Part shown: positions 6,780-61,743 of the stretch, one piece after another
How the letters are laid out: each line of letters opens with the position of its first letter
Position numbering within the stretch: position 1 is the first letter of the stretch
Assembly (NCBI GenBank): GCA_028819305.1
Contig: JAPPLY010000057.1
Coordinates: forward strand, 30,432-94,431
Direction: 5' to 3'
DNA from: Bdellovibrionales bacterium
Lineage (GTDB): Bacteria; Bdellovibrionota; Bdellovibrionia; Bdellovibrionales; UBA1609
Length of the DNA stretch: 64,000 nucleotides
Made by a program: the position numbers and the translations under genes
Notes under the pieces: generated by a model
The model's input: the letters and a program-made list of their open reading frames with translations, nothing else
Told to the model about the DNA's origin: nothing
Databases searched by the model: none

Positions 6780-6780
6780 T

Positions 6781-13282: not shown

Positions 13283-13508
13283 TAAAAAGTTATTGCTTTT
13301 ATTATAAAAAATATGATAGCCCTCAAAGTTACACCGACCTTGTTTGACAGTTCCTAATTTAAAAGCTTGGCTATTAAGAGGATGGAGAGCCACTAAAGTG
13401 GCTTTCCATTTAAAGGTTATGGAAAAGCTTGTCCTTTTGGAAATGAGGATAACACAGGATATATGGGTATTTCTGTGATTTTAGGACAAAAAAGGAGAGA
13501 TTACATAT

Positions 13509-18239: not shown

Positions 18240-18477
18240 ATAATTAAAATCAGGCAAAATTGATTTTTTATAATTGTTAAATTGACTCTTTCTTCTTTTT
18301 TTGTCTTCTGGATTTGATGTTTTTCGTGCTGTCTTTTCCGCACAATAAAGTAAAAGCTGATTATAAATACTAGTTTGATTATTTGTAATAGTTTCTAGAA
18401 TCTCAAAATCCATGTAAAAATATAAAAAAATAAAAAAGGAACTGGTGTTTTTAAACGGGATCAGTATAATATAATTC

Positions 18478-22544: not shown

Positions 22545-22704
22545 TATATCCGTTCGGTTTGCTCCCAGACTGTCGCTAGGACCAGGAAGTTTAGTCATTT
22601 CCGCTAAGCTTATCCCCGTAAAAGCGGGGAGAGGGAACCTTGTTTACTCCCCTCTGGCTGCATGGAATAATAAACACACTTCCAAACTCACAAACAAGGA
22701 GTAT
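22545..22704 (+). repeat. Family E repeat element
   Basis: tatatccgttcggtttgc start. Internal hairpin cttatccccgtaaaagcgggga, shared with 61650-61675 (cttatccccgcttccgcggggataag). Ends tcacaaacaaggagtat. Confidence 0.55.
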
Positions 22705-23986: not shown

Positions 23987-24233
23987 TCCTTGAGTTTACT
24001 ATGTAATAATTTCTCCATGCGCCAAAGTTCTGAAAGGGGGGTGCTTTCAATAATCCTTGAGGAGAACAATCTGGAATTTTATTTTAAATGTTTTGAGATA
24101 AGGTCGTTTTCAATTCTTCTTAAAAAAGGTCTTTTACTGTTTGATGAGTTTGTTCCGTTTGGTTTTATTTTCTTAAAAATGGTTTTTATAAATTTATTAG
24201 TCAGAAAAGTGTTTCAATTATAGAATCTTAAGG
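23960..24233 (+). repeat. Decaying tandem array of copies of the mglA 3' end (stop-codon-spanning 35-mers)
   Basis: gttctgaaagggggtcgttttcaataatccttgag 23960-23994 (contains stop TAA 23984-23986); gttctgaaaggggggtgctttcaataatccttgag 24027-24061; gagataaggtcgttttcaattcttcttaa 24095-24123; tcagaaaagtgtttcaattatagaatcttaagg 24201-24233. The period is ~67 bp for the first three copies. Confidence 0.8.
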
Positions 24234-35638: not shown

Positions 35639-36601
35639 ATGGAAGAAATATCTTTTAAGCCTTTAAGTGAAGGTTTAGGTTTTTATGACCCTCCTTTACA
35701 GATTGGGGTTTCCGGTCCTTCTAAAAAAATAGCTGATTTACAGAAAAAGAATTTTTTATCCTCACCGGAATGGCCTGAATCTCTCCTATCTGGATCCTTG
35801 GACTTGGACAATTTACAAAATTATGAGCATCTTATATCTTTATTAGAAAAACCGTGGTTAGGAAAAAAGAGCTCGGGTTTTTTTTCAGGGAACAGATCTA
35901 TGATCCTGGAAAATAAGGAAGAAGAAAACCCAGCTTCTTCTCCTGTAACAAGAACCCCTGGTCTTTCTAAAAATCTTATAAAAAAAAACACTCAAGAGCC
36001 TTCTTCCGTATCACCGGTAAAAACCACTTTAGACCGCTCCGGTCAGGAATTTACGAACTCTGAACTTCGTTCATTTTTGGGAAAAAGCTTACGGAAACTA
36101 CAAAAGACAAGCCAGGTTAGTATATCCGCCTCGGACAAGAAGGATATTCTAAATAAAAATACTTTGACCGAACCGTCTTTAAATAAAAATCAGTTGGTTC
36201 CTAAAAAAACATTTTATTTTTCCTTAAAAGCTTACCTGGTGGATACCTTTATTATTTCTTTATTGTTTTTTCCGCCTTTTGCTTTATTTGTGTTTCTAAC
36301 TCAACCCGTTCCTATGGCTGTACTTCCATCGGTATGGCCTCAGATTCTGTTAACCTTTCTGTGTTTTTCTCAAATTTACTGTCTGTTATGTCGTTTGTTT
36401 TGTTTTGAAACCTATGGAGAGGCTCTTGCTAAGATAAGACTTTGCCATTTAGATTCTTCAAAAGAAGTGCATCCCTACAGATGGCTTTTGCGATTTTTTG
36501 TTTCTTGTGCCACTGGTTTTATTTTTCTCCCTTTGTTGTCTCTTATCTTTAGGAAAGATTTTACGGCTCGTCTAACGGGGCTTTATTTTCAAAAAATATA
36601 G
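35639..36601 (+). CDS. Membrane protein, possibly RDD family
   Basis: 320 aa. Soluble Ser/Lys-rich N-half. The C-half has TM helices and LKAYLVDTFIISLL ... ETYGEALAKIRL, reminiscent of RDD-domain proteins. Confidence 0.35.
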   Translation: MEEISFKPLSEGLGFYDPPLQIGVSGPSKKIADLQKKNFLSSPEWPESLLSGSLDLDNLQNYEHLISLLEKPWLGKKSSGFFSGNRSMILENKEEENPASSPVTRTPGLSKNLIKKNTQEPSSVSPVKTTLDRSGQEFTNSELRSFLGKSLRKLQKTSQVSISASDKKDILNKNTLTEPSLNKNQLVPKKTFYFSLKAYLVDTFIISLLFFPPFALFVFLTQPVPMAVLPSVWPQILLTFLCFSQIYCLLCRLFCFETYGEALAKIRLCHLDSSKEVHPYRWLLRFFVSCATGFIFLPLLSLIFRKDFTARLTGLYFQKI

Positions 36602-37571: not shown

Positions 37572-38513
37572 ATGGTTTTTGTGAGAAACAACGATGTGTC
37601 GTACATCACATTTAAACAAGTGATTTTTGGATGGATCTTATCCATTCGTTTCAAGCCTCTTATTGTGGGTGTAGGACCTGCTCTTATTGGTATTAGCCTC
37701 TCTTTTTCTGGGTGGAATTATTTTTCCTGGTTGTTAAATGGGTCTATTCTCTTTTGTATTTTTTGTATTCAAATAGCGACGCATTTTTTTAATGATGCTT
37801 TTGATTTTCTAAAAGGGGCGGATGATTCTGCTCGTAAAGGCCCCAAAAGAGCTTTGCAAAAAGGATGGCTCACCCCCTCCCAGTTATTTAAAGGTGGCGT
37901 TTTTTGTTTATCTTTAGCTACGCTCACTGGCAGTTATTTAGTGTGGCAGGGGGGTTGGCCTGTTTTTTTTATAGGTGTTGCAAGTTTAGCTTTAGCTTAT
38001 TTTTATACCGGTGGGCCTTATTCTCTAGCTTATACCGGGTTAGCTGATATCTTTGTGTTTTTATTTTTTGGTCTCATTCCTGTAGCAGCGGTGTTTTATC
38101 TTAATACAGGTTATTGGGATGAAGGTGCTGTTGTAGCTGGTCTTCAATGTGGTTTTTTAGCTTTAAGTCTTTTATTGGTTAATAATCTAAGAGATGAAGA
38201 AGAAGATAGAAAGGCTCAAAAGAAAACTTTGGTTGTCAGATTTGGTCGAAAATTTGGAACTTGGGAGTGGACTCTAGCTCATTACCTCCCTTATTTGTTT
38301 ACTTCTTATTGGTTTTTTAAAGGCTTGGGTATGGTGGTGTTTTTACCTTTGATTTTATTTCCTTTTTCAATATACTTACATTCTCTTTTATATAAAGCTT
38401 TTGAAAAAGAAAATATTTATAGCCGGGTTTTTGCTTTCACTTTACTGCATTACTTATTATTTATTTTTTTGTTATCTTTCTGTTTGGTGTCGGGAGAAAA
38501 TGGGCTATTTTAA
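37572..38513 (+). CDS. menA: 1,4-dihydroxy-2-naphthoate polyprenyltransferase
   Basis: UbiA family, multi-TM. NDAFDFLKGAD (NDxxDxxxD) and a second Asp-rich motif NNLRDEEEDRKAQKKT. Confidence 0.85.
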   Translation: MVFVRNNDVSYITFKQVIFGWILSIRFKPLIVGVGPALIGISLSFSGWNYFSWLLNGSILFCIFCIQIATHFFNDAFDFLKGADDSARKGPKRALQKGWLTPSQLFKGGVFCLSLATLTGSYLVWQGGWPVFFIGVASLALAYFYTGGPYSLAYTGLADIFVFLFFGLIPVAAVFYLNTGYWDEGAVVAGLQCGFLALSLLLVNNLRDEEEDRKAQKKTLVVRFGRKFGTWEWTLAHYLPYLFTSYWFFKGLGMVVFLPLILFPFSIYLHSLLYKAFEKENIYSRVFAFTLLHYLLFIFLLSFCLVSGENGLF

Positions 38514-38557
38514 ATGGCTTAGAGCTTATATTGAACGAACCGGTCAGGATATGATAT

Positions 38558-39622
38558 ATGGATCTTCTGTTAAATAGTTCAGTGAAGAATATCTGGTATG
38601 CTTTTTATGAATTAAGGGTGAAAAAAACGGGGCAGGTTCGTTGTGGAGCTTTGTTAAAAGTAGAGTTTAGGGATGGAAAGACGGGTCATGCTGATCTTCA
38701 TCCCTGGCCAGAGAAAGGGGAAGCTCCCTTAAAAGTTCAATTGGACAAATTAAGGAAAAAAGAATGTACGACCTTATGTTCAAGGGTCTTAGCTATTGCC
38801 AGAGAAGAGGCAAAGGCACGAACACAGGAGTTTAATTTACTGAGTTCTTTAAAAATTCCTTTAAGTCATTACCTTATTTCGGATGTAGAAAATTTCTGCG
38901 ATTTAGATAAAGTATTAAATCAGGGTTTTCGCATTTTTAAAGTAAAATTAAATACTCCTTTAAAAAGACAAACACAAAAACTTTTAAGATGGATGCAGAC
39001 TTTAGGTTCTTCTGTTAAATGGCGTTTGGATTTTTATATAAAATTAAACGAGCAACAATGGCGGCGGTGGAGCGAGGAATATTTAGTTAAAATGGATACT
39101 CAATATTTGGATTTTATGGAAGTGCCTTTTCAGTATCAAGAGCGTCTGTGGATGCAATACGAAGAATATCCTTTGGCTTTAGATGTATGGAATGGAAAAA
39201 ATACCTTGCCTGTATCTACTTTAGTGTGGAAAAATTCCAGAAAAAGCGAACCAGAGCTGCTTAGAAAAAAAAGGGCTGGGCTTTTTCAAAGAGTCATTTT
39301 TACTCATAGCCTTTCTCATCCCTTGGATCAACTTTCCAGCGCTTACTTTGCTGCTCGATTTTATAAAATCCATCCTCATTTAAGAGAAGTGTGTGGCTTG
39401 GTTCAAAAGGATGTGTATGAAAATCATAAGTTCACTTTACCCGATCGAGGGCCTTGCTTCCCTCGTCTTTCCGGAAAGGGTTGGGGCTTGGATTCTTTTT
39501 TATTGGATCGTCTTTCCTGGAAGAAATGTTGTTCTTATACTAAACCGATAGAGAAAAAAGAGGCGATAGGAAGAGACTGTAAAGTTACAAAAAAAATAAT
39601 ACCCGCAGGGTATAAAAGATGA
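38558..39622 (+). CDS. menC: o-Succinylbenzoate synthase (enolase superfamily)
   Basis: KxK motif FRIFKVKLN, metal-ligand-like WRLDFY / LDFMEVPF / LALDVW, position between menA and menE, ATGA overlap with menE. Confidence 0.65.
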   Translation: MDLLLNSSVKNIWYAFYELRVKKTGQVRCGALLKVEFRDGKTGHADLHPWPEKGEAPLKVQLDKLRKKECTTLCSRVLAIAREEAKARTQEFNLLSSLKIPLSHYLISDVENFCDLDKVLNQGFRIFKVKLNTPLKRQTQKLLRWMQTLGSSVKWRLDFYIKLNEQQWRRWSEEYLVKMDTQYLDFMEVPFQYQERLWMQYEEYPLALDVWNGKNTLPVSTLVWKNSRKSEPELLRKKRAGLFQRVIFTHSLSHPLDQLSSAYFAARFYKIHPHLREVCGLVQKDVYENHKFTLPDRGPCFPRLSGKGWGLDSFLLDRLSWKKCCSYTKPIEKKEAIGRDCKVTKKIIPAGYKR

Positions 39623-40965
39623 AAACAGCTTTCTATAAAATTAATCCTTCTCAAGTGGATTGGGAATCAGAAAATTCCTTGGTGTTTTTTAATGAGAAGC
39701 ACGCAAAAAAAGATATTTTTGTATCTTCTATACCCCAGCTTCCTTATTTAAAATCACATGTATGGCTAGCTACCTCCGGTAGGGTTTGTCAAAAATGGGT
39801 CGCTCTTTCCAAGGAAGCTTTACTCACTTCCGCTCAAGCGGTTAATCGGCATCTCCATGTTACGGAGAAGGATCGTTGGGGGCTTTGCCTTCCTTTGTTT
39901 CATGTAGGAGGTTTAGCTATTTTAGCTCGTGCTCACCTATCTCATAGCTCTTGCTTTTTATTTTCAGGAAAATGGTCCGCTTCTTCTTTTTTGGCCTTTT
40001 TAAATCAAAATAAGATCACTTTGAGTTCTCTCGTTCCTGCACAAGTGTATGATATAGTAAAAGCTCAACACGCTTGTCCTTCTTTTTTAAGGGCGGTTGT
40101 AGTGGGAGGAGAAAGTTTAAACCCCATCCTTTACCATGCCGCCCGAAAGCTAAATTGGCCCTTACTTCCTTCCTACGGTCTTACGGAATGTGCTTCTCAG
40201 GTGGCTACAGCCGAGTTAGACACTCTTATACCGCACCGGTCAGAAACCCCTGCCGTTCCCCGCGAAGCCAGATTTCGCGAAAGCAGAGGCGAGGACCAGC
40301 TTCACAGAGGCATGTTTTCGAACTCCGCTTCCTCCCTAGAAGGAGCTTCCCTTAGGAAGGAGTTTACAAAAACCACAAAACCAGCCCTCCTGGGGATCAA
40401 ACCAGATCAGTATGATAAAATGGAAATGCCTAAAATGAAAACCCTTTCTCATGTTCAAGTTAAGATTATTCAAAAAAAAGTGGCTATTCAGTCCGGGAGT
40501 CTTCTTAGTGGTTTTGTATCTCTTTTACCTTCGTCTTCTCGTTTAGAGTTTCAAAACCCGAGTCAGGACGGCTGGTACTTTACCGAAGATAAAGGCTCTT
40601 TAGAGGGGTCTTTTTTACAAATAGATAACACGGCTCAAATAAAAATATTAGGAGAGAAAATAAACCTAGAGGGTTTGGAAGACACACTAATGAATATTGT
40701 ATTAAAAAAAAAAGAAATAGCGGGGCAATACATTCTTCTCCCTATACCTAGTGAGAGAGAAGGATTTCAAATAGCTCTTATTTCAGATGTTTTTAACAGG
40801 CCGGTTTTAGCTGATCTTATTCAGGAATTTAATAAGAAAGTCTCTCCTTTTGAAAGAATTAGGAAGTTTTATCTCGTTCCTGAATTAACTTTTACTGATA
40901 TTTCCAAACTTTCAAAGCAAGCTTTACTTAAAAAAATGGCCTTCTCTTCAGAAAAGCGGGCTTAA
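39619..40965 (+). CDS. menE: o-Succinylbenzoate-CoA ligase carrying a 62-codon in-frame repeat insertion
   Basis: Adenylate-forming enzyme blocks: LATSGRVCQKW (degenerate TSGTTG.PK), SYGLTECASQV (YG.TE), GWYFTEDKG, KILGEKINLEGLE. Men operon context. Confidence 0.75.
   Translation: MKTAFYKINPSQVDWESENSLVFFNEKHAKKDIFVSSIPQLPYLKSHVWLATSGRVCQKWVALSKEALLTSAQAVNRHLHVTEKDRWGLCLPLFHVGGLAILARAHLSHSSCFLFSGKWSASSFLAFLNQNKITLSSLVPAQVYDIVKAQHACPSFLRAVVVGGESLNPILYHAARKLNWPLLPSYGLTECASQVATAELDTLIPHRSETPAVPREARFRESRGEDQLHRGMFSNSASSLEGASLRKEFTKTTKPALLGIKPDQYDKMEMPKMKTLSHVQVKIIQKKVAIQSGSLLSGFVSLLPSSSRLEFQNPSQDGWYFTEDKGSLEGSFLQIDNTAQIKILGEKINLEGLEDTLMNIVLKKKEIAGQYILLPIPSEREGFQIALISDVFNRPVLADLIQEFNKKVSPFERIRKFYLVPELTFTDISKLSKQALLKKMAFSSEKRA
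40228..40413 (+). repeat. Family E repeat element inserted in frame in menE (186 nt)
   Basis: ataccgcaccggtcagaaacccc ... accagcttcaca ... aaaccacaaaacc ... ggggatcaaaccagatcagtat. The termini and internal blocks match the intergenic copy 56582-56769 (atatcgaaccggtatagaaccccc ... accagcttcaca ... agggatcaaacaagatcagtat). 186 = 62 x 3. Confidence 0.8.
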
Positions 40966-41077: not shown

Positions 41078-41319
41078 ATCAGTGACCGGTAGGTATTAGG
41101 TTGCGTGTCTTAAAAATCCCTTCCTGAGAAGGGGGAGAAATATAAAATTTGGAAAAGAAATTCAAAAGCTTAAAAATTTCTGATAATTTCAAAAGCTTGG
41201 TACAAATTTGTACCGCTCCAGTTTGAACATTTCAGATATAAAAGCTTGGCTAACAAGGGGAAAAAGGCCGGGAAGTTACGAAAAGTAATACCCACCGAGT
41301 ATATCAGTGGAGTATATAG
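41078..41319 (+). repeat. Probable divergent family E element containing a 16-bp perfect palindrome
   Basis: Starts atcagtgaccggtaggt and ends atcagtggagtatatag. Interior has GGTACAAATTTGTACC (41199-41214) and three TTCAAAAGCTT-like repeats. Confidence 0.35.
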
Positions 41320-41536
41320 GTCAATTGTGGTAGTTATATTGTTTTTTATAGTTTATGTCGGATTTAGTTTGATCTCTGTGGCGGGGGCGAAGATGTGATT
41401 TTTCGGTTGTTTCGTTCTTTTTTCCCAAAGGAAGAGAGAAGGTTCCCCGTGCTATGCCAGTTCGGTATAATTGATAATTGCAGATGAATAGAAAAGAAAA
41501 TGGGAACAAAGTAAGGTAGAAGAGGTTTAGAAAATC

Positions 41537-45301: not shown

Positions 45302-46876
45302 ATGAAAGTAAATAGAACTCACTTTTTTTCTTTTTTTTTAATGGCTCTTGTACTTTTTCCGGTGTTTGTTTTTTTGTTTAAAGTTCCTCTGTTACAGTTT
45401 CCTGCTTCTTCTGAGTGGTTTGAAGTTTTTATTTCTACTTTGCTGCAAGCGGGATTGAGCGCTTTTTTTTCTGTTTTGCTTGGGATCTTTGGTGCTTTAG
45501 GACTTTGTGCTTTTTCAAATATACCGAATCGGTATCGAAAAAAGAGGAATCTTCAGAGGCCCTCACTGCCTTTGGGAGAAAACAAAAAGACGCCCGGAAA
45601 GAGCAAAACAGATTGGAATAGTATAAAAAAGAAAGGGTTGGAGCTTTTCTGTCTTCTACCTGCTCTACTCCCTCCTTTGATTCCAGTTTTAGCCTGGATT
45701 AATGTATTTGAGTTTTTTTATCATTTTCCTTTTTCTTTTTATTCTGTTTTGGCGATTCATATATGTATGAATGTGGGTTTTACTTCGGTTTTCTTTTTTC
45801 GTTTGTTTCAAAATCAAACAGGTTCCCTCCCAGCATGGGCTTTTTTACATGGTGTAAGCCGCTTATATTTTTTAAAAAAGATATTATTTTTTGAGTTCAG
45901 AAAAGATATTATACTTATTTTCTTATTAATATTTTCTTTTTGTTTTACTAGTTTTTCCGTCCCTCTGCTTATAGGGGGAGTGAGTGGTCAAACTATGGAA
46001 GTATTTATTGCGGAAAAACTTAAAGACCCTGCTACCTGGCCGGAAGCGATGGCTTTATTTACTATAGAAACGGTATTTATTTTTATCTTTTTTATCTTAC
46101 TTTATGGGAGGGAAGAAAAAGAGGTGAGAATTGTAAAACAGACAGAGCCATTATATTTATTGCCCTGTCTGCCGTTTTTGATTTTACCGGTATTGCCTTC
46201 TTTGTTAATTTTTTTGGGGTTGGGGGATGTGTTTTCTTCAGAAGCCGTCTGGCGGGATTTATTTACTATTAAGGAGAGTGTGGCTATGGCTGTCATACAA
46301 ACTTTGTTTGTTGGTATAGGCACAGGGCTTTTAGTGCTTTTTTTATTAGCCTTTGTGGCTTTTTGCCTACGGGATCTTTTTTTGCGTCATTTTCTTGTGG
46401 CCTATTCTGGAGCTTCCGTGGCTTTTATGGGTTTTGCTTTTTTACTCATAGGTTCGGATGGTCCTATAACAGTAGGGATGAAGTGGTCTGTCGGTTTGGC
46501 TTTGCTTTTTTTACCAACTTTATATCGTTTAATGGGAGAGTCTCTTCTACGACGATTAAAAAATCAAATCCAACTGGCTGATCTTATGGGAGCTAGTAGA
46601 GGTTTAAGTTTTATTAAAGTTATCTGGCCTCAATGTGCTGGTGTTTTCTTTTTTCTTTCCGGTATAGCGGCTTTTTGGGCTTGTGGGGATTTTGCATATT
46701 CTTCTATTGTGGCAGGTGAACAAACGCATTTGGCACTACTTATTCAAGATCTATTTTCCTCTTATCGTTTTGAACTGGCTACAGTGCTGACTTGGTTTTT
46801 GATTTTGAGTGGCACTTTTTGTTTTTCTTTGTTTGCAGGAGGAGCTTTTGTCTTATATAAAAAATCTTATTTGTAA
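45302..46876 (+). CDS. thiP: Thiamine ABC transporter permease (duplicated two-module type)
   Basis: 524 aa, ~12 TM, between thiB and thiQ. Contains a short family E insertion. Confidence 0.7.
45521..45625 (+). repeat. Short family E element inside thiP, reading through in frame
   Basis: ataccgaatcggtatcgaaaaaag (compare gataccgaaccggtatagaaaag at 26124) ... gagcaaaacagattggaatagtataaaa. Translates to [35 protein letters not shown] between two TM helices. Boundaries are accurate to about 3 nt. Confidence 0.55.
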
Positions 46877-50126: not shown

Positions 50127-50249
50127 GTTTATTCCTCCTGTTTTCTTTTCTTATAAGCGAAGTAAGAGATCAAAGCAATATTTTTATTTAGGATCCCTTT
50201 TTTAAAAGATGCGGTTATATTTTATGCTTAGTTTTTCTTTATATGGTTT

Positions 50250-52217
50250 TTAATAATTAGTAATGAGGACTTCTTTTAGCTTCTTTTTCTTATTATTATA
50301 ATAGTTGATATAATTGCTCTCTATTTTATGAACACTGTATTTTTTCATCCACTTAATTAATGAGCTATTTTTGTGTCCGTTATAATGAGTGACATTTGAA
50401 AAAGCAAACCTAACATTTTTTTTGTTTAAATCATCTATTAAAGATAGTAGATCAACCTCTAGTTTGTCATTCCAAAGTTTATTGTATTCACTACCTGTTA
50501 TTAAATAAGGGGGATCTAGATAAATAAAGTCATCTTTTAGATAATTTTTTTTGTTTAAAAATTTTTTAAAATTTTTTGTTGTGAGCTTTATATTTTTACC
50601 TTGAACAAAAGAAAAGTAATCGTTAAGAGCCTTAACGACATTTTTGTTAAAATCCACATTACCTACAGGTAAATTAAATTTCCCCCCGCCATTGAATCTA
50701 AGCATTCTGTTAAAGCCATATATAAGTAAAACATAAAGAATCAAAGGATCATTTTCTTTATGTTTATTAGCTTGTTTACGTAATTTTTCATAACCAACTT
50801 TATTAAATTGAGCATAGTAGGTTTTTTTAAAAGATTTTTTTAAAGAATCCGGAACAATATCTTTTTTATAGGAGTGGGAAAGATTATATTTGTGTATAAT
50901 CTTTTCAATATTCTTAAAAAAGTTCTTTTGATGGGAAGCACTGTTTATTAAGAATTTATGTATATTTATTAGATTTTTATCTATGTCGTTTAAAAAATAT
51001 TTTTTAGCTTGAATATTTAAAAAAACAGTTCCTCCTCCTACGAAAGGTTCATAAAAATGATTTATTTGTTTAGGAAATAAATCATTTAACTGATTCATTA
51101 ATTTATATTTATCTCCCACATAAAATAGAGGAGATCTTTTTATTTTTCTTTTATTTTCTACTTTGGTTATAAATAAATACTCTTTGTGATTATTAAAATG
51201 GGTGTTTCCGGCATTAAAGTAGCGATAGTCTTTTTCAAAAGTTTTGGTCTTTCCTCTTTGATTTAATATATCTGTTATTTCTTCTAATGAAATTTTATTT
51301 TGGGATGAACTGCTTTTAGAAAGATAAGTATTGTTATAAGACACCACCAGATGTTTTGTTTTTATATTCTTAATTAATTCAGAAAACCGGTCTTTAGCAC
51401 TTTCTTTACAATAGTCGCTCATGTTTTCTCTCTTTGGTTTTAAAGCCACTCCATATAGCTTGGGATGATCCCATTTTGTGAGAGTTTCCAAAATATGATA
51501 AAACCGGCTGTACTGTCTGGAATTATAAGGAGGATCAATATAAACAATATCGGCTTTAATTTTTTTAACTAAGGTATTTGTGTCTTCTCTAAAAATAGAA
51601 AGAGATTTTATGTCAATAGGTTGAATTAAGCTCATATAAAAATTGTCTCTGATAAAATTTTTTTTAAAGTAAGCGTCGTAGTGTCCGACTGTGTTGGCAA
51701 TTTTGTCTGTAGAATAAAGAAGGGAAGCTATTAAAATGTGGTATTCCTTCTCTGTAAAATCTTTTTTATTATCTTCGATGTGTTGTCTGATAAATCCAAT
51801 GATTTTTGCAGAATCTTTAGAGAAATATTTTTTTCCAAAGTTTTTGGAAAAATAATTGCCGGTTAAATTTTTAACATTGATATTATTATAGTGATTTATA
51901 ACAGAGTTTAGGTTGTTTTGATTCCAATGTCCTTTTTTAAAAAAAGCCTTATAAATAATATAATTGGAATAAAGAAAGTCATTTAAAATAATTTTATTAA
52001 AATATTTACTGGCTGTAGCTCCCACAATACCTGTGCCGGCAAAAATGTCGGCAAAGGAATCCCCTGAGCATTCTCTATTAAGGGTAGAAAAAATCCAATT
52101 TGCTAATCTATATTTATTACCAATGTATCTGCGGTTTTGTAGTTGAAAAAATGGATTTGGTGGAAAGGAAAAAAAATCATTAGACTTTTGATTAAAAAAG
52201 CTTTTTTGTATTTCCAT
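50250..52217 (-). CDS. Tandem double-domain N6-adenine DNA methyltransferase (two D12/Dam-class modules, M.FokI-like architecture)
   Basis: Module 1: RRYIGNKYRL, FADIFAGTGIVG, IVYIDPPYNSRQYSRFYHILE. Module 2: PLFYVGDKYKLMNQL, FYEPFVGGGTVF, FIYLDPPYLITGSEYN, C-terminal EVLITNY. Each module has an F.G.G SAM loop and a DPPY motif. Confidence 0.85.
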   Translation of the reverse strand: MEIQKSFFNQKSNDFFSFPPNPFFQLQNRRYIGNKYRLANWIFSTLNRECSGDSFADIFAGTGIVGATASKYFNKIILNDFLYSNYIIYKAFFKKGHWNQNNLNSVINHYNNINVKNLTGNYFSKNFGKKYFSKDSAKIIGFIRQHIEDNKKDFTEKEYHILIASLLYSTDKIANTVGHYDAYFKKNFIRDNFYMSLIQPIDIKSLSIFREDTNTLVKKIKADIVYIDPPYNSRQYSRFYHILETLTKWDHPKLYGVALKPKRENMSDYCKESAKDRFSELIKNIKTKHLVVSYNNTYLSKSSSSQNKISLEEITDILNQRGKTKTFEKDYRYFNAGNTHFNNHKEYLFITKVENKRKIKRSPLFYVGDKYKLMNQLNDLFPKQINHFYEPFVGGGTVFLNIQAKKYFLNDIDKNLINIHKFLINSASHQKNFFKNIEKIIHKYNLSHSYKKDIVPDSLKKSFKKTYYAQFNKVGYEKLRKQANKHKENDPLILYVLLIYGFNRMLRFNGGGKFNLPVGNVDFNKNVVKALNDYFSFVQGKNIKLTTKNFKKFLNKKNYLKDDFIYLDPPYLITGSEYNKLWNDKLEVDLLSLIDDLNKKNVRFAFSNVTHYNGHKNSSLIKWMKKYSVHKIESNYINYYNNKKKKLKEVLITNY

Positions 52218-52422
52218 AATTATTAATTTAGTCTCGTTTAAAATTACTTTTTCTCTTGATTTGAGAATAAAATTTTTATCTAAATTATTAGATAATTAAG
52301 CTTATTAGATTTAAACAATAAATCATTAACACTGAGTGATATGTAAAATTGTATCTGAATATTTAAAGAGATAAAATAATGCACCGCTTATCAGACGAAA
52401 GGGCAGCTTTTTTTAAAGCATA

Positions 52423-53511
52423 TTAAAATTTTCCCAATTTAATAGAAAGAATTTTTTTAATCAAACTAGAAGGGTTTTTCTTTTGTAGGTTTTTAATGGG
52501 TACCCATGAGACCTTTGGCAAAGATGAGGAAGGTGCTTTTTTAGATACTAGAACATAAATAACATGATGAGTGATGGAATGTATAAAGTCATATCGTTTG
52601 GGGGGGACTTTCTTTCTAATAGCTTTTCCAGGAAAGAGGGGGTAGTTTTTTAGTACCGGTAAAGAGTGATGATGAGTTAAGGCTATTTTATTTTTTTTTA
52701 TATCCATCCGATTTGGATTTTTTAGGGGTGTCTTTTTTTCTTCCAAGGGCAAGCGGAGTTTGGAGGGTGTAAATTTCTGACTGGTTCGGTCTATTAACAC
52801 GAGGGGTTGCCAGAACCATATTTCTTTTTCCTTTTTTTCTTTTTTCAAGGGGATAAAATGTACTTGATTATGTTTAAGAGCTTTGCAGTTTTTTTTAAGA
52901 GGGCAGGCTGTGCATAGCGGTTTCCCGACTGTGCAAACAAGGGCTCCTAACTCCATTAAGGCTTGATTTAAAATGGAAGAAGGGTATTTTACCATCCACT
53001 GATCCACCTCCTTTTGTAAAATCTCTCTGCCTTGTTTGTTCCACCAGGGTTTTTTAAAATTAAGATAACGGGTGAGGACCCGAATGACATTGGCATCCAG
53101 CACTCCTGTTTTTTCATTAAAAGCTAAAGCGCTCACAGCTCTGGCGGTGTAGGGACCAAACCCGGGTAGTTTTAATAATTCTTGATGAGTTCGGGGGAAA
53201 GATTTTTTCTTACTAATGATTTGTGCGGACTTATGGAGATTTTTTACTCGGGAATAGTAACCCAGGCCAGCCCAGTAAGGGATAACTTCTTCCAGGGGAG
53301 TTTTAGCTAAAGATTCCAAAGTTTTAAATTTTTTAATAAATTTTTTGTAGTAGGGGATCACCGTGTTTACAGTCGTTTGTTGCAACATTACTTCCGATAC
53401 CCAGATAGGGTAAGGGTTTTTCTTTTTTTTTCTCCAAGGGAGAGGTCTTTTGTTTTGCCTATACCATTTAATAAGTTGATTTTGACTGGTTTGATGTGGA
53501 TTGTCTGACAT
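52423..53511 (-). CDS. mutY: A/G-specific adenine glycosylase MutY
   Basis: LIKWYRQNKRPLPWR, YPIWVSEVMLQQTTV, LPGFGPYTARAV, 4Fe-4S CTVGKPLCTACPLKKNC, C-terminal MutT-like domain. Confidence 0.9.
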   Translation of the reverse strand: MSDNPHQTSQNQLIKWYRQNKRPLPWRKKKKNPYPIWVSEVMLQQTTVNTVIPYYKKFIKKFKTLESLAKTPLEEVIPYWAGLGYYSRVKNLHKSAQIISKKKSFPRTHQELLKLPGFGPYTARAVSALAFNEKTGVLDANVIRVLTRYLNFKKPWWNKQGREILQKEVDQWMVKYPSSILNQALMELGALVCTVGKPLCTACPLKKNCKALKHNQVHFIPLKKEKKEKEIWFWQPLVLIDRTSQKFTPSKLRLPLEEKKTPLKNPNRMDIKKNKIALTHHHSLPVLKNYPLFPGKAIRKKVPPKRYDFIHSITHHVIYVLVSKKAPSSSLPKVSWVPIKNLQKKNPSSLIKKILSIKLGKF

Positions 53512-53549: not shown

Positions 53550-56500
53550 TTAATTGTTTTTTGGTAGAGCTTTTAATAAAATATTTTCCAGTTCGGCAAA
53601 ACGACTTTTATTTTTGATCGTTCCTTGGGCAAAGCGAGCCTGCCCTCCTCCTTTACCGTTCAGAAAAGGGGCGATGGTGTTTTTCAAAAGTTCTCCGGCG
53701 GAGATATATTGTTGTAGCTCTTTGGAAACAGTGATGACGAGAGGAAATTGCTTTTCCCCTTCACCTAAAATGACCACGATGGCGGGAGCCCTTTTGGATT
53801 TGAGTTGATCGGCTGTTTCCGCTAGTATTTTTCTATCTTCAATGGGCAAAGCTATACTTAGTAAATAGCCTTTTATATTTTGGTGTTCAAAGGGTTTTGC
53901 TTTTTTTATTAAATTGTCTAAGTTGAAAGAAGAAGTGATGTTTTCTAATTGCTTTTTAAGTGTTTTGATTTGTTCTTCTTGTTTTTGGAAAAAGGGAACG
54001 AAAATGGCATCTGTTTCTTCAAAATTTTTGGGAAGAGGGAGTTTTAAGTATTCTCTTAACTCTTCATTTTGATGGACTAAAAAATAAGGTTCTTTTGACT
54101 GAGTATGTTCAAAAGTTGTTTTCTCTGTAGTAAGTGCTTTCTTCTCTGAATTGGTCCTATTTAAAGATATTTTAATTTGAGTTTTTAAAGTTTTAATTTC
54201 TTCTTCTTTTTTTTGAAAGTAGTGAATAAAAGGATTTTCCCTTTCTGGGGTGTTTGGTAAGGGAATATTTAAATATTTTCTAAGTGTGTTATTTTGTGTT
54301 TCTAAAAGAGAGAACCATTTTTTGGCTATATCACTTGTGTAAGCGGTGATTCTTCGCACTCCCGATTGCACACCCGTTTCAGAAATGATTTTAAAGCTGC
54401 CGATGTCGGAAGTGTTTTTTACATGAATCCCCCCGCAAAACTCCAAGCTCTCTCCCATTTGGATGACCCGTACTTCGTTCTCGTAAGTTTCTCCGGCTAA
54501 AGATAAAGCCCCTTTATGGATAGCTTCTCTATAAGGATAGGTGGCATCAGACACAGAGTGACTTTTTTGGATATACTCTATTACTTTATTTTCAATCGTT
54601 TTTAATTGCTCTTTGCTTAAGGGTTTAGAGTGACTAAAATCAAATCTCAGTTTTCCTGGTTCCACTAAGGAACCTTTTTGTCTAACAGATTTACCGAGGA
54701 TCTCTCTTAAAGCCTGATGTAGCAAGTGAGTGGCAGAGTGACTGGTGGCGATCAGCCGCCGGTGATCTGGATCTACGTGCATTTCACAAGCTTGGTTTGT
54801 TTTTATTTCTCCTTCTAAGATTTTTACTGCATGAAAAATAAAGTTCCCTTTTTTTTGACAATCCAGTACCTCTGCTTGGCCAGTTTCGGTTTTGATGATA
54901 CCTTTATCTCCAACAGGCCCACCCCCTTCCGGGTAAAAACAAGTTTTATCTGTTATTAAATATAACTCATTTTCATTTTGTTCTATTGTTTTTTCATATG
55001 AAACTGCCTGGTCGTCTATCCTTGTCCATAATGTTATTTTTAGCTTCCCATCTTTTTCTTTTTTTATAGAGCTTGAAGGACGGGGGCGTTGGGCGGCAAA
55101 AGAAATAATATTTTCATCCATTATGGGGTCGTCAAGGGGTTTTTCAATAAACAGGAGATGTGTAATCTGACTGTTCTCTTGATCTTTGTTGTAACCGGTA
55201 AATTCTGTTTTTGTTATGGGATTCGATTTATATTCTCTCGAGTTTAATTGCTGTATAGATTCCTCTAAATTTCTCTTTATACTTTGTTTTCTAAAGCTGG
55301 ATATGTATGTTTGTTTAAATTTCTCTAAATTAAAATTTTCATTAACTTCAAAACCTTTTTCTTTTGCGATAAGGCGAGTGAGATCAGGAGGGAACCCGTA
55401 AGTGCTGTAAAGGTTCCAGACAATAGAGTCGGGAATCGTTTTCCCTGATAGATTTTTTATTTTTTGAAGTAAAATATTTTTCCCCATTTCTAAGCTTTCC
55501 GTGAAAAGCTCCGATTCGGCTTTTATGGTGGAATCAATCAGGGTATTTTCTTCACTTAATTCCGGGTAGATGTTCTCCATTAAATGAGTCACTTGTTTAA
55601 CAGCAATAGATAAAAGGTTTTTATTTTTTGTTAATTTTTGGCTATAAAATAAAGCTCTTCTTAAAATGCGTCTCAGGACATAGCTAGCCCCATCGCTTCC
55701 TGGTAATACCCCATCGCAAATAAGAAAAGCAATGGCGCGGCTGTGATCCGCTATAACTCGAAAAGCCACTTGCTCTTCATTGAGATGGGTTTGGGTAAAA
55801 TCATATTTTACATCAGAGGCTTTTTCTAAACATTTTATAATCCCTTTAAAAAGATCGGTGTGATAGTTGCTTTTTTCCCCTTGTAAAACTGCCGCCAGCC
55901 GCTCCAATCCCATACCCGTATCCACACAAGGCTTAGGCAATGGTGCTTTTCTTCCGGACCGATCTTCATTAAACTCCATAAAAACCAGGTTCCATATCTC
56001 CGTCATATCTTCCGGTAGAGGATTTTTTTTTGGTCCATCATAATAGTAAATTTCCGAACAGGGACCGCAGGGTCCGGTGTCTCCCATGCGCCAAAAGTTA
56101 TCTTTTTCGTCCAGGAAGAATATTTTTTCTAGCGAAACCTTTTCTTGTTTCTGCCAAATTTCCGCACTTTCCTTATCTTCTTTAAAGACACTCACCCACA
56201 GCCGGTCTTTAGGAAGCCCTAATTCTTTTGTGAGAAAATTTATGGCGTACTCAATAGCTTGCTTTTTAAAGTAACTACCAAAAGAAAAAGAGCCTATCAT
56301 TTCAAAAAAAGTGTGATGATAAGGAGAGTAACCCACTTCTTCCAGATCATTGTGTTTTCCTCCCGCTCGCAGACATTTTTGAATACTGCAAACTTGTGTT
56401 GAGGGAGGGGGCTTTAATCCTAAAAAGCCATCTTTAAATTGATTCATTCCGGCGTTGGTAAATAAGAGGCTGGAATCTCCTTGCGGGATAAGGCTAGAGC

Positions 56501-56570
56501 TAGGTACCCAGGTGTGACCTTGGTGTGTAAAATAATGTTGAAATTTTTTTCTAATATCAGAACTGTTCAT
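53550..56570 (-). CDS. alaS: Alanine-tRNA ligase (1006 aa, longer than the AlaRS sequences I know; carries an internal 75-aa tandem duplication)
   Basis: MNSSDIRKKFQHYFTHQGHTWVPSSSLIP...DSSLLFTNAGMNQFKD, HHTFFEMIGSFSFG, editing-domain HSATHLLHQALR and C-terminal DHHA1-like GKGGGQARFAQG. Confidence 0.95.
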   Translation of the reverse strand: MNSSDIRKKFQHYFTHQGHTWVPSSSLIPQGDSSLLFTNAGMNQFKDGFLGLKPPPSTQVCSIQKCLRAGGKHNDLEEVGYSPYHHTFFEMIGSFSFGSYFKKQAIEYAINFLTKELGLPKDRLWVSVFKEDKESAEIWQKQEKVSLEKIFFLDEKDNFWRMGDTGPCGPCSEIYYYDGPKKNPLPEDMTEIWNLVFMEFNEDRSGRKAPLPKPCVDTGMGLERLAAVLQGEKSNYHTDLFKGIIKCLEKASDVKYDFTQTHLNEEQVAFRVIADHSRAIAFLICDGVLPGSDGASYVLRRILRRALFYSQKLTKNKNLLSIAVKQVTHLMENIYPELSEENTLIDSTIKAESELFTESLEMGKNILLQKIKNLSGKTIPDSIVWNLYSTYGFPPDLTRLIAKEKGFEVNENFNLEKFKQTYISSFRKQSIKRNLEESIQQLNSREYKSNPITKTEFTGYNKDQENSQITHLLFIEKPLDDPIMDENIISFAAQRPRPSSSIKKEKDGKLKITLWTRIDDQAVSYEKTIEQNENELYLITDKTCFYPEGGGPVGDKGIIKTETGQAEVLDCQKKGNFIFHAVKILEGEIKTNQACEMHVDPDHRRLIATSHSATHLLHQALREILGKSVRQKGSLVEPGKLRFDFSHSKPLSKEQLKTIENKVIEYIQKSHSVSDATYPYREAIHKGALSLAGETYENEVRVIQMGESLEFCGGIHVKNTSDIGSFKIISETGVQSGVRRITAYTSDIAKKWFSLLETQNNTLRKYLNIPLPNTPERENPFIHYFQKKEEEIKTLKTQIKISLNRTNSEKKALTTEKTTFEHTQSKEPYFLVHQNEELREYLKLPLPKNFEETDAIFVPFFQKQEEQIKTLKKQLENITSSFNLDNLIKKAKPFEHQNIKGYLLSIALPIEDRKILAETADQLKSKRAPAIVVILGEGEKQFPLVITVSKELQQYISAGELLKNTIAPFLNGKGGGQARFAQGTIKNKSRFAELENILLKALPKNN

Positions 56571-56581
56571 ATTTTTAAATT

Positions 56582-56769
56582 ATATCGAACCGGTATAGAA
56601 CCCCCGCTCCCGCGAGAACCAGCTTCACAAGGACCGGGTTTTCTCATTCCTACTTCTCCCCCAGAAGAGAATCACTACCTGATTCATATAAAAAATCGGA
56701 CAACATATTCTTGCCCTCCACTTGTGCGGGGGCAGGGTGCATGGGTAGTAGGGATCAAACAAGATCAGT
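56582..56769 (+). repeat. Family E repeat element (reference intergenic copy, between alaS start and recX end)
   Basis: atatcgaaccggtatagaacccccgctcccgcgagaaccagcttcaca ... gtgcgggggcagggtgc ... agggatcaaacaagatcagtat. It explains ORF-track entry 56481..56831. Confidence 0.8.
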
Positions 56770-56871
56770 ATAGAGCAATTACTGCTTTGTTATCAAGTTT
56801 TTATTTTTTACTTGTATGGCTATTTTTTTAGGATGTCCTTTGTTTATAGAAAAGATTGCTTTCCTTATTTT

Positions 56872-57318
56872 TTATCTATGGATGTCATATATGACCTTTT
56901 TTATTATAGATTGTTCAAAACCTCTATAGGAAAGAAAGCGGTGCATTTTTTGTATTATATTCTGTGGGGGATTTTGTATATGTTTGAATTTTTTTTCCAT
57001 CCACCATCGGCATTTTTTTTCTTCTAAAGCTTCTTGTCTTTGTGTGGAAGGCAGGTGCTTTCTCTTTAATGCTGCTTGAATCAAAAGCCAACCTCTGTTT
57101 TTTCTGTGTAACTCATTAATAAGTTGCTCAGCTATTTCTTCGGGTTCAGGAAGCCATTTTTGTTTCTTTGCCAGACAGAGGGCTTTCATTACATCTTGTT
57201 TGTTAAAATGCTTTTTAAGTTTACACTCTAGCTCGTACTCGGAATGTGTTCGATAACAGATGTAAGTTTGTAGCTTTTCTATAATGTTTTTTTCAGAAAG
57301 TTTCTTCTTATTGTTCAT
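56872..57318 (-). CDS. recX: RecA regulator RecX (probable)
   Basis: 148 aa, helical-repeat composition. CYRTHSEYELECKLKK fits the RecX N-terminal pattern (R..S..EL..KL). It sits directly upstream of alaS, as in the widespread recA-recX-alaS arrangement. Confidence 0.55.
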   Translation of the reverse strand: MNNKKKLSEKNIIEKLQTYICYRTHSEYELECKLKKHFNKQDVMKALCLAKKQKWLPEPEEIAEQLINELHRKNRGWLLIQAALKRKHLPSTQRQEALEEKKCRWWMEKKFKHIQNPPQNIIQKMHRFLSYRGFEQSIIKKVIYDIHR

Positions 57319-57371
57319 TAGAAATGAAAATTAATATTTATAGGAAACAAAATCCAGTTTTATTTTGTGTT

Positions 57372-57700
57372 TCACCGAACCGGTCAGGAAATCGTATCTC
57401 TCAGAGGGTCTCTTTGGAAGATAAAAAAAGAGACCCTCGAAAAACTCTGTCTCCGCGAAGGTTGTTTCCACAAAATGACTCCTCGTGAAAACGGGGGAGT
57501 GGGGCTAGATTCCTGTTTCTACAGAATTGACAAGCTAGAGAAGTTTGTCCTTATGAGAACAGGGAGCGCGGGGACCTTTTTCCTCACGGACAGGGGGGAT
57601 CAAGGAGGACCGAAAATTTTAGGATATACAGAAAAAGACCTGTCCCTTGAAGGGGGGTAAGGGGGTAAGGGGGTAAGGGGGGATCAAATCAGATGAGTAT
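57372..57700 (+). repeat. Family E repeat element, long variant (329 nt) with a G-run microsatellite
   Basis: tcaccgaaccggtcaggaaatcg start. 10-bp perfect hairpin gagggtctct...agagaccctc. ccacaaaatgac block. Ends ggggggatcaaatcagatgagtat. It explains ORF-track entry 57367..57660. Confidence 0.8.
57652..57682 (+). repeat. (GGGGGTAA)n microsatellite / canonical G-quadruplex motif
   Basis: ggggggtaagggggtaagggggtaagggggg: four G5-6 runs separated by TAA loops. Confidence 0.9.
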
Positions 57701-57708
57701 AAATGATT

Positions 57709-58899
57709 TTAAGAGGCGTTCGTCTTTGTTTTTAAAGATAATCCTGTGCTAGATATGTCTTGAGTTTTAGTTATTTGCTCTGGGGCAGATTGATTCATAT
57801 ATTTTTCAAATTGATTTTCAAAGGAGATTCCAGAGGAGATCAGTTTAATTTTTTCTGCAGATGTGGAAAACCGATTAGCGTCTCTTTTAGAAATTAATTT
57901 TTGTTTCATCATTTCAATTAAATGTTGATCGAAAGTTTGCATGCCCCAGTGGTTTTTACTTTCCGTCATAATTTTCCTTATTTGCTCTGTAGAGCTGTGT
58001 TGTTTTTCAATCTCTTTTTGTACTCGATAGTTATTAATTAAAATTTCCATAGCGGGAATATAACCTGTTCCATCTTTTTTAGGAATCAACCTTTGTGCAA
58101 AAACAGCTTTTAATACAGAAGATAAAACCAGTCTTACAGACTGTTGTTCGACACTGGAGAACACACTCAAAATTCGATTAATAGTTTCTGCTGCCTCTTG
58201 AGTGTGAATAGTAGAAAATATTAAATGTCCTGTTTCTGCAGCCGTTAAGGCAGTAGAAATAACATCTTTTGTTCTTAATTCGGAAAAAAGAATAATATCC
58301 GGGTCTTGCCTTAAAGCGGATTTTAGAGCGAGATGGGGATCATAACAATCTACACCCATTTCTCTTTGAGTGATAAGGCTATGATGATCTTGAATCAAAA
58401 ATTCAATCGGGTCTTCAATGGTAAGGATGTGTTTATTTTTGGTTTTATTGATGTGATTAATGATAGCTGCCAAAGTGGTTGATTTTCCCACTCCAGTGGC
58501 TCCCGTAACCAAAATTAAGCCTCTTTCTGCTTTGTTTACGATGTTTAGTATTTCCATTGGAAGGTTTAAATCGTTAAAAAGAGGGACATTGTGAGGAATG
58601 TGACGAACAGCTACCCTTATACTGCCTCGTTGAAAAAAGATATTAAAACGGAATCGCCCTATTCCTTTTAATCCATAACCTAGATCCACAGACCCATATT
58701 CTCTCAATTGTTCCTGGTAATTGTCAGTTAATATAGGTGCGATCAGCTGATCTATTGTGTGATTATTAATAATAGGTAAATCAGAACTGAGAGTGCATAA
58801 TTTGGTTTTTTTTCTCATAATAGGGGGAGCCCCTACTTTTAGATGCAGATCACTTCCTCCTTTGTGCACTAATTCTGTTAATAATTTATCTATGTCCAT
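57709..58899 (-). CDS. pilT: Type IV pilus retraction ATPase PilT/PilU family
   Basis: GGSDLHLKVGAPP, Walker A GATGVGKSTTLAA, Asp box, LRQDPDIILFSELR, HLIFSTIHT. Confidence 0.85.
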   Translation of the reverse strand: MDIDKLLTELVHKGGSDLHLKVGAPPIMRKKTKLCTLSSDLPIINNHTIDQLIAPILTDNYQEQLREYGSVDLGYGLKGIGRFRFNIFFQRGSIRVAVRHIPHNVPLFNDLNLPMEILNIVNKAERGLILVTGATGVGKSTTLAAIINHINKTKNKHILTIEDPIEFLIQDHHSLITQREMGVDCYDPHLALKSALRQDPDIILFSELRTKDVISTALTAAETGHLIFSTIHTQEAAETINRILSVFSSVEQQSVRLVLSSVLKAVFAQRLIPKKDGTGYIPAMEILINNYRVQKEIEKQHSSTEQIRKIMTESKNHWGMQTFDQHLIEMMKQKLISKRDANRFSTSAEKIKLISSGISFENQFEKYMNQSAPEQITKTQDISSTGLSLKTKTNAS

Positions 58900-61282: not shown

Positions 61283-61582
61283 AATGATTACTCCTTTTTA
61301 GGAAAGATTTTATGTTTATACCGGACAGATCAAGAATCCCCTTTTCCACAGGGACCTCTGTTTACGCCCTCCGTTTACTCTTGGGAGAAAAAAGAGGCTA
61401 TCGAAAAATGCAAACTAGACTGGTATATATACTCTAAAGTAAAACTTTTTTAAAGTAGGGAATCCCTTGAGTTCTTGTTGTCATTATTAATTTATTCTTA
61501 AATTTTTAACCTGTGCTTGTTTTTAGAGATATTATCTGTTATGTGTGGTCCTTTAAACTGAGTAGAGAAAAGAATTAAATTT

Positions 61583-61743
61583 ATACTGATCTTATTTGAT
61601 TCCCGCGACCCTGCTCCCGCAAAAGCAGGGGGCGAGGACCTTATCCCCGCTTCCGCGGGGATAAGGTTTTGTGCTTTCTGTAAGCTTCTTCCGAGGAGGT
61701 GAGCGGAGTTTGAAATTCGCAATTTCTATATCGGGTCAGTATC
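61583..61743 (-). repeat. Family E repeat element (termini in reverse orientation, mosaic interior)
   Basis: The left end atactgatcttatttgattccc is the reverse complement of gggaatcaaataagatcagtat. Hairpins ccctgctcccgcaaaagcaggg and cttatccccgcttccgcggggataag. Right end ctatatcgggtcagtat. Confidence 0.7.

Follow-up and report, generated by a model that had tools for sequence, protein, structure and literature searches.

A probable MITE-like repeat family with copies on both sides of recX and inside housekeeping genes of a Bdellovibrionales bacterium

Introduction

In a contig of a Bdellovibrionales bacterium (GenBank assembly GCA_028819305.1, contig JAPPLY010000057.1), recX lies between two similar stretches of DNA that share one orientation (56582–57700). 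Coordinates are those of the window, by which we mean the whole stretch analyzed, 64,000 nucleotides at positions 30,432 to 94,431 of the contig, forward strand. An earlier note made from these letters alone assigned both stretches to a mosaic, hairpin-rich repeat family, family E, described both as stop-free, and supposed that the family, if mobile, is non-autonomous. What is this family, how did it come to stand on both sides of recX, and does the arrangement mean anything for the gene? The evidence below makes it very probable that family E is a non-autonomous transposable element resembling a miniature inverted-repeat transposable element (MITE), specific to its lineage and sometimes inserted in frame inside housekeeping genes. 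In-frame insertion into housekeeping genes is already known from Rickettsia; here it is seen in a new lineage.

Results

Family E is a real repeat family that recurs in related genomes

The right-terminus pattern GGATCAAAMMAGATCAGTAT matched the window four times where 0.02 matches were expected, and the left-terminus pattern ATACCGAACCGGTMWRGAA ten times (0.05 expected); the blocks ACCAGCTTCACA and ..CACAAAA were also commoner than chance. A core profile, a full-length model built from three copies of a related genome and three window copies, gave ten matches in the window, seven of them to copies outside the seed, with E-values down to 1.5e-11, and none in ten block-shuffled windows used as controls. 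The similarities first picked out by eye thus persist when the alignments are scored, and the existence of a dispersed mosaic repeat family is supported. Nor is the family confined to the window. When the right terminus was searched against 185,579 species-representative genomes, the 17 matches were overall about the number expected by chance, and eight of them, all exact, fell in one 2.08-Mb contig of the Bdellovibrionales metagenome-assembled genome (MAG) GCA_965243065.1, with one more in OZ251471.1. Loci from both hold complete elements with ends and core as in the window.

The window contains 13 complete copies of 85–329 nt, in total 1,992 nt or 3.1% of its length, and several solo termini. 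Searches with terminus profiles recovered the copies of the earlier note and added others. Its copies at 40228, 17358, 34521, 22545 and 61583 (reverse strand) are family members, as are the two beside recX; that at 2811–2943 is genuine and reaches to 2756, and a supposed partial or solo terminus at 45521–45625 is a complete 97-nt copy ending at 45617. Complete copies at 61318–61422, 52700–52794 (minus strand), 36031–36122 and 6268–6352 (minus strand) had been missed. Two of the listed termini, 2531–2560 and 27378–27440, proved to be separate small hairpin modules, and a third, 41078–41319, is mostly unrelated sequence.

Syntenic loci of relatives were reached via RecX and MenE homologues and are referred to as L018, L019, L020 (from GCA_965243065.1) and L021; their nucleotide identity to the window is ~85%, ~80%, 85–88% and ~78%, respectively. 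L021 is a sponge-metagenome contig (SRR1576521) with a close MenE orthologue, and its origin suggests that the lineage of the window may be associated with an animal host. Core matches number 0.16–0.19 per kb in the window and L020 and 0.05 per kb in L018 and L025, the lone L025 match spanning a hairpin only, and there are none in L019, L023 and L024. Copy density is therefore lineage-specific.

Relatives carry empty sites at the positions of the copies

Filled and empty alleles could be compared at eight orthologous places, at one of which the window is the empty allele. Junctions at the more diverged sites, where automated ungapped prediction of the empty site failed, were read by eye in the alignments. 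At menE the reading frame serves as an anchor: L021 is empty (ACC TTG | AAT AAA), L020 carries an insert of 45 nt that consists of two termini only, and the window carries one of 186 nt at the identical point. Both inserts fit CT-TA-[element]-TA-AT, and only a 2-bp TA duplication brings the empty site of L021 into register. The copy at 45521 is absent from L020, where the protein has 491 aa as compared with 524 aa (33 extra residues) in the window, and this site also fits TA, with 4 mismatches in 36 positions. The window and L018 share the 31-aa insert of mutY, which L019 lacks. In the RDD-family gene the copy at 36031 has an orthologous copy in L020, and at ~35730 it is L020 that is filled, with a second copy, and the window that is empty (AAAAAAA-TA-GCTGATT).

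Intergenic copies behave in the same way. Those at 61583 and 61318–61422 are both absent in L018, which at the latter place has the empty site ..ATGTTTATATACTC... The copy at 56582 is absent from the orthologous spacer in L018 (64 nt) and in L019; L018 reads GCTCA-TA-ATTTAAAAATA where the window reads GCTC-TA-[element]-TA-ATTTAAAAATATG. The 57372 site is empty in L019 (60-nt spacer) and holds a diverged element of ~125 nt in L018.

With such clean empty sites in its relatives, family E behaves as a non-autonomous mobile element, which is what the earlier note had put conditionally. As a rule, bacterial MITEs are small elements with terminal inverted repeats and 5'-TA-3' termini that duplicate their target site and form in-frame fusions with open reading frames (ORFs) (PMC2229807, PMC10969869). 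Set against the criteria of Delihas 2008 (PMC2229807), family E has terminal inverted repeats, a target-site duplication seen by filled/empty comparison (2-bp TA, frame-anchored at menE), and small, multicopy units with no transposase of their own, the ORFs within them having no family matches.

Copies inside genes are in frame, open and in sense

The earlier note had overlooked that several of its copies lie within real genes. Five of the 13 complete copies do: 17358–17531 (plus strand, 174 nt or 58 codons) in cdsA (17202–18239), 40228–40413 (plus, 186 nt or 62 codons) in menE (39619–40965), 52700–52794 (minus, 31 codons) in mutY (52423–53511), 36031–36122 (plus) in an RDD-family gene (ORF 35639–36601), and 45521–45617 (plus, 97 nt, or 99 nt with the duplicated TA) in ORF 45302–46876, which belongs to no known family. 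The mutY copy has a pair of terminal inverted repeats (TIRs) and matches the core model with E = 5e-13; the RDD-family copy matches it with E = 6e-20, having been one of its seeds. Each of the five lengthens its host gene by a whole number of codons, has an open frame and lies in sense to that gene, and two frames of the element are used among them, IP.RS.. and.DRT.Q... These properties argue for translation of the intragenic copies and for survival of frame-compatible insertions only.

In MenE the insert follows directly after the YGxTE motif, and alignment to MenE structures in the PDB gaps ~57 aa at exactly this place. Among 21 aligned orthologues (base length ~378 aa) the 62-residue insert is unique but for a 15-aa miniature version in P0016 (GCA_965243065.1). 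In the AlphaFold model, residues 206–266 have a predicted local distance difference test (pLDDT) score below 50 and no secondary structure, as against scores of 80–96 on either side. The CdsA insert lies in the N-terminal part of the protein, for which the Pfam alignment begins only at residue 115; CdsA has 345 aa as compared with 270–290 aa in homologues, and its 58-residue insert is found in none of eight homologues. The homologue alignments, together with the predicted structure of MenE, show that intragenic copies add what are probably disordered loops. When the 62-aa insert peptide of MenE was used as a query against proteins, no candidate came up; this is uninformative, as the word index requires three shared 5-mers.

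Six further MenE orthologues (P0024, P0025, P0027, P0046, P0055 and P0081) carry other in-frame inserts of 20–130 residues in the same two loops, which appear to be insertion hot spots. Some of these inserts contain ..WVPAFAGMT.. or ..LLRKRESP.., peptides that, compared with the window's own module, look like a translated small hairpin module.

The two copies beside recX are probably independent insertions

At the locus itself, alaS (53550–56570, minus strand), recX (56872–57318, minus; Pfam RecX_HTH1/2/3) and a gene for a PilT-like ATPase (57709–58899, minus) are followed by cinA and recA on the plus strand. Synteny is conserved around recX orthologues of 80% and 66% identity. A cluster of proteins 100% identical to the window's RecX exists, although exact look-ups of the sequence brought up no record. 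The spacers flanking recX, of 301 and 390 nt, are raised to 47–49% G+C in a window of 37% G+C. In the recX-alaS spacer, the first copy (56582–56771, plus strand, 190 nt) has the left end ATATCGAACCGGTATAGAA and the right end GGGATCAAACAAGATCAGTAT, and is flanked by TA at 56580–56581 and 56772–56773; the alaS start codon is 11 nt from its left end. The second, composite copy in the pilT-recX spacer (57372–57700, plus, 329 nt), identified by its termini and the core profile, contains a hairpin with a 12-bp stem (GAGGGTCTCTTT..AAAGAGACCCTC) and a (GGGGGTAA)x3 run. Both copies thus exist where they had been placed, on the same strand and one to each side of recX.

The bracketing of recX is coincidental and carries no structural meaning. 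L018 lacks one of the copies and L019 lacks both, and since the recX gene order is the same in these relatives, the two copies were inserted at different times. On this comparison they are independent insertions in neighboring AT-rich spacers, with no joint function suggested. With ~13 complete copies and additional solo termini in 64 kb of densely packed genes, two filled adjacent spacers are unsurprising. A composite transposon carrying recX was considered and ruled out, as the synteny of recX is unchanged in relatives with one copy or none.

The claim that both copies are stop-free stands for the first and fails for the second. Two forward frames of the 56582 copy are open throughout, and dinucleotide shuffles put the probability of at least two open frames at 0.025 and that of at least one at 0.27. 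In the 57372 copy none of the six frames is free of stops; there are 2–7 per frame and 25 in total (26.1 expected), and its ORF stops 40 nt short of the element end. Over 11 copies, which share ancestry and hence provide no independent test, 117 stops were counted where 149.5 were expected, 47 on the forward (sense) strand and 70 on the reverse. Could the long ORFs over the two copies, at 56481–56831 and 57367–57660, nevertheless be small protein genes? They are there, with 116 and 97 codons, and the 56582 copy does have fewer stops than shuffled sequence. Neither ORF matches a Pfam or NCBIfam family, however, and the first shares 90 nt with alaS, which lies on the opposite strand. The second terminates within the element and is not conserved in sequence in L018. 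The DNA concerned is missing from L018 and L019, and open frames at such places are expected of G+C-rich sequence in an A+T-rich genome. We regard their being genes as very remote. The peptide GIKQDQY at the end of the 56582 copy, to which the earlier note had likened GIKPDQY of MenE, is simply the DNA of one right terminus read in one frame.

A promoter-like site, TTGATA-18-TATACT, lies at 56767–56796 on the minus strand. Its -35 box is native and its -10 box is formed by the TA flank and the element end; the empty site in L018 has the same -35, in TTGATA-17-CATAAT. Transcription of alaS would accordingly start at the edge of the 56582 element and read through it, if the predicted site is used.

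Ends, interior modules and predicted folding

The termini are imperfect inverted repeats of ~20 nt and two variants of one motif, reading TA|TACCGAACCGGTCAGGAA and TA|TACTGATCTKGTTTGATCCC from the outside inward, with TAYNGAWCYKGT common to left and right. Copies in loci L001, L003 and L005 have one terminus of 20–22 nt inverted at both ends with most positions identical, and some copies of the related MAG have the second variant at both ends, which makes a near-perfect inverted repeat. TA stands on both sides of most of the 13 complete copies, the remaining ones having mutations in one flank or in both. A conserved core, TIR-GAATTTGCGAACTCCG..GGAAGAAGCTTACAGAAAnCACAAAAC-hairpin(s)-TIR, is common to the window and GCA_965243065.1. 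The interiors are otherwise mosaic, with GC-rich hairpin modules gained or lost in varying number. In the copy at 61583, a second hairpin occupies the loop of the terminal hairpin GTCCTCGC-GAAA-GCGGGGATC, and L019 has another hairpin within a hairpin.

The description of the family as hairpin-rich fits a few strong structures at the local level. The window has seven different perfect hairpins whose stem is at least 7 bp, listed as 10 matches as compared with 2.55 in shuffles. The description does not extend to whole elements, whose fold z-scores (-0.5 to -1.6) are unexceptional and rule out a structured RNA of element length.

Six complete copies besides those flanking recX are intergenic. On the plus strand lie 61318–61422, upstream of tadA and recognized by termini and core profile; 34521–34650, a core-model match whose right terminus has a 5-nt deletion; and 22545–22704, the weakest member, with degenerate termini and below the threshold of both terminus and core models. 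On the minus strand lie 61583–61743, upstream of rpsU, which fits the core subfamily better than any other copy and was aligned with L012–L014; 2756–2943, with the hairpin ATTCCCGCTTTCGCGGGAAT at 2816–2835; and the short copy 6268–6352, found by terminus and core profile. A solo palindromic terminus, ATACCGAACCGGTATAGAA, is situated at 26125–26143 (plus strand), 7 nt upstream of dnaX, and the terminus profiles found similar ones at 7024–7049, 38533–38553, 41450–41470 (minus) and 18444–18469 (minus).

Solo palindromic termini in fact lie 7–12 nt upstream of the start codons of dnaX, menC and alaS, the element end recreates a -10 box beside the native -35 of alaS, and the 56582 copy contains one terminator-like hairpin. 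Such placements are what one would expect if family E consisted of cis-regulatory or RNA elements under selection, with the palindrome TATACCGnnnCGGTATA as an operator, or with the copies acting as terminators, small RNAs or leader structures. Much else contradicts this. The window has no Rfam match at the gathering threshold, and at an E-value threshold 56500–57800 gave only a meaningless long non-coding RNA match (E = 0.41). The fold z-scores given above are weak, promoters and terminators are no more numerous than in shuffled sequence, close relatives do without elements at the same genes, and copies are found within coding sequence. The copy in L020 that is orthologous to that at 34521 has an intact terminus and is 88% identical, inside the 82–90% range of aligned blocks between L020 and the window. 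We therefore hold a regulatory nature of the family to be improbable.

A dRS3-like hairpin module is shared well beyond the family

One of the interior modules, a hairpin of ~27 nt, GTCATTCCCGCGAAAGCGGGAATC(CAG/TAR), fits the dRS3 consensus of Neisseria, ATTCCCN8GGGAAT (PMC1797815). It occurs in the window at 2811–2840 on the reverse strand, with a close variant standing alone at 2531–2560, and also in loci L005, L007, L015, L020 and L026–L105. In places it fills the loop of another hairpin. The exact 24-mer GTCATTCCCGCGAAAGCGGGAATC was found in 109 stretches of IMG/VR, on contigs of 40–71% G+C, with CAG nearly always next and with some arrays of 77-nt period; the Microcystis phage MaAM05 has 14 copies of a version that is 93% identical. 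In MenE orthologues, the module looks to be translated as ..PAFAGMT... Hairpin modules of the kind noted earlier are thus present, and at least this one is not private to family E; judged from its matches, it is a cosmopolitan hairpin.

No transposase was found with the copies

As stated in the earlier note, the window holds no transposase: none was found among its ORFs scanned against Pfam. The Pfam tables of the syntenic loci likewise list no transposase domain. Neither the window nor the fetched Bdellovibrionales loci yielded an autonomous insertion sequence (IS) with matching ends, and pairs of inverted termini 0.7–3 kb apart, which would be a sign of a full-length IS, were absent from all fetched loci. 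Wider scans added little. A JGI metagenome scan with the right terminus gave one match, on a contig that starts with C4A4 repeats like a ciliate telomere and which we take as chance; IMG/VR viral-contig scans gave 3 and 0 matches for the two termini, none of the three showing other features of the family; and a plasmid BLAST of the region gave no match. Our literature search brought up no article about MITEs of Bdellovibrio or Bdellovibrionota.

The earlier note had proposed a search for an IS200/IS605 TnpA(REP)-like enzyme, which raises the alternative that family E consists of extragenic palindromes like the repetitive extragenic palindromes (REPs) and bacterial interspersed mosaic elements (BIMEs), spread by a REP-associated tyrosine transposase (RAYT) of the IS200/IS605 Y1 type. 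The small GC-rich hairpin modules, which stand alone as well as nested, the mosaic structure as in BIMEs, and the failure to find a DDE transposase are in keeping with this. On the other side, precise gain or loss affects whole units of 85–330 nt, which have inverted ends and are flanked by TA, where REP/BIME systems have imperfect palindromes of ~35 nt and a RAYT; copies occur inside genes; and no Y1_Tnp domain was detected in any scanned ORF of the window. Inverted repeats of ~20 nt, TA flanks and whole-unit insertion make up the signature of a MITE. A REP-like nature of the family is accordingly unlikely in our estimation; a REP/RAYT origin could apply to the small hairpin modules themselves.

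Other repeats and variable segments in and around the window

A hicB/hicA-like toxin-antitoxin pair (~6360–6800) lies between direct repeats of 221 nt (5915–6135 and 6796–7016, 93% identical). The short family E copy at 6268–6352 and a solo terminus adjoin it, and the region 5915–7106 looks like an inserted cassette. At 50194–52405 is a variable slot that in the window holds a D12-class adenine methyltransferase of 655 aa (50250–52217); in L018 it contains a helicase and another gene, and in L019 the methyltransferase is fragmented. Between a UbiA-family (menA-like) gene and menC, L020 has 571 extra nt (8210–8781) that include a 152-aa ORF of no known family, and the window has at the matching place (38503–38555) only a solo family E terminus.

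Several repeats are distinct from family E. The motif ..AAAAGCTTGGCTnnnAAGrGGA.., which is not part of it, occurs at 13324–13382 and 41203–41261, upstream of rpsB and of a polyprenyl synthase gene, and is conserved in the related MAG (L020 ~11340–11400); it may act as a promoter, a leader or a small-RNA element. A second short family (..GGGTTTTAATnGGTAAACT.., ~40 nt per unit) lies at gene ends, sometimes in tandem with a spacing of 49–118 nt, at 201–260 (reverse), 2419–2613, 4688–4915 and 8142–8198. A 35-nt unit, GTTCTGAAAGGGGGTCGTTTTCAATAATCCTTGAG, has three copies at 23960–24124, spaced by 63–67 nt, downstream of a small GTPase-like gene. AlaRS, of 1006 aa, has a segment of ~25 residues, GKLKITLWTRIDDQAVSYEKTIE, at 54962–55049, in the window and L019 and not in L018; towards its C-terminal part it also has a motif that is duplicated internally. 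Neither derives from an element. An extra 69 nt in alaS (54962–55049) was examined as a possible element and rejected; it is an unrelated lineage-specific segment.

Discussion

Family E is best explained as a MITE-like transposon, and the steps by which it would spread can be outlined. A transposase acting in trans would bind the inverted ends of ~20 nt and excise the element, which would then be pasted into a TA dinucleotide that is duplicated in the process. In a compact genome, many such insertions would fall in promoters, 5' leaders or genes; copies whose length plus TA is divisible by three, and which have an open sense frame, could persist within genes as disordered surface loops. Element ends may also rebuild promoters at insertion sites.

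Several observations weigh against this explanation. About 250 kb of sequence from the lineage revealed no cognate transposase, only IS3-type rve genes in two more distant relatives. Three of the intergenic empty alleles deviate by 1–2 nt from the TA prediction, in TA-rich runs, and at these sites the duplication may be a 4-bp TATA instead. The termini are unpaired in the predicted minimum-energy folds, with the weak z-scores already given, and in this many described MITEs differ. The 22545 copy and several of the solo termini match weakly. Finally, the copies are diverged, with no two in the window near-identical. This last point, along with the background-level divergence of the orthologous 34521 copy, suggests that the family is old; its copies give no evident sign of current activity.

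Two readings reach further, and we put them forward as possible but doubtful. In the first, the transposon family would have been shaped for translation, as might be read from the five intragenic copies out of 13, all in sense, and from the excess of antisense over sense stops (70 versus 47 over 11 copies). This would amount to an independent colonization of housekeeping proteins, like that by the Rickettsia palindromic elements (RPEs), in a genome of ~2 Mb from a lineage that is perhaps animal-associated. In the second, the hairpin modules would be a separate, cosmopolitan micro-element, that is, a mobile hairpin common to several phyla with no known mobilizing enzyme, which would be of more interest than a MITE.

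As a MITE-like transposon, family E would explain why MenE, CdsA and MutY are 30–60 residues longer than their orthologues, and would account for the G+C-rich islands and spurious spacer ORFs in this lineage of MAGs. Presence and absence of copies could be used as strain and species markers among these uncultured bacteria.

How does family E compare with known systems? It shares with the dRS3/NIME repeats of Neisseria a mosaic organization and the hairpin ATTCCCGCTTTCGCGGGAAT at 2816–2835, which fits the dRS3 consensus (PMC1797815). The window has this one exact consensus match and one N7 variant (2538–2556) and contains no dRS3-RS arrays; the module is a passenger in or beside elements bounded by inverted repeats. 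IS630/Tc1-mariner-derived MITEs likewise have TA target duplication and short inverted ends, a likeness drawn from the TA signature, but no IS630-type transposase or full-length element with the ends of family E was found in the window or the fetched loci.

The Correia elements of Neisseria (CREE, NEMIS) are similar in having inverted repeats of ~20–26 nt, 5'-TA-3' termini and target-site duplication, in varying in size by internal blocks, and in ends that can form a junction -10 box; their short variant contains open frames and occurs in fusions with genes (PMC2229807, PMC2649163). Their terminal sequences are unrelated and their hosts differ, and the interiors of family E are far more heterogeneous. 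Correia elements are not known to have a transposase. Enterobacterial RU-1/ERIC, RU-2 and RU-3 and QMITE1 of Coxiella are MITEs with open frames fused to host ORFs (PMC2759123, PMC5896051). In contrast to family E, whose insertions are internal to conserved enzymes, their fusions are mostly C-terminal overlaps or concern hypothetical genes.

In behavior, family E is closest to the RPEs, yet it is not one of them. It differs in its phylum, in its clear TA flanks and inverted ends of ~20 nt, and in not folding into one long 5'-3' stem-loop; six element peptides found no NCBIfam or Pfam match at E up to 10, in a library whose content of RPE domain models was not checked. RPEs are singled out in reviews for frequent in-frame insertion into conserved genes; like family E, they are small repeats that lie in spacers and, unusually often, in frame in conserved housekeeping genes, where the added peptides are tolerated (PMC2229807, PMC10969869). 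The hosts of both have small, A+T-rich genomes, and family E has entered protein genes in frame in cdsA, menE, mutY, the RDD-family gene and ORF 45302. Beside Rickettsia, it would provide a second independent system for studying how frequently essential proteins tolerate or recruit peptides derived from transposons.

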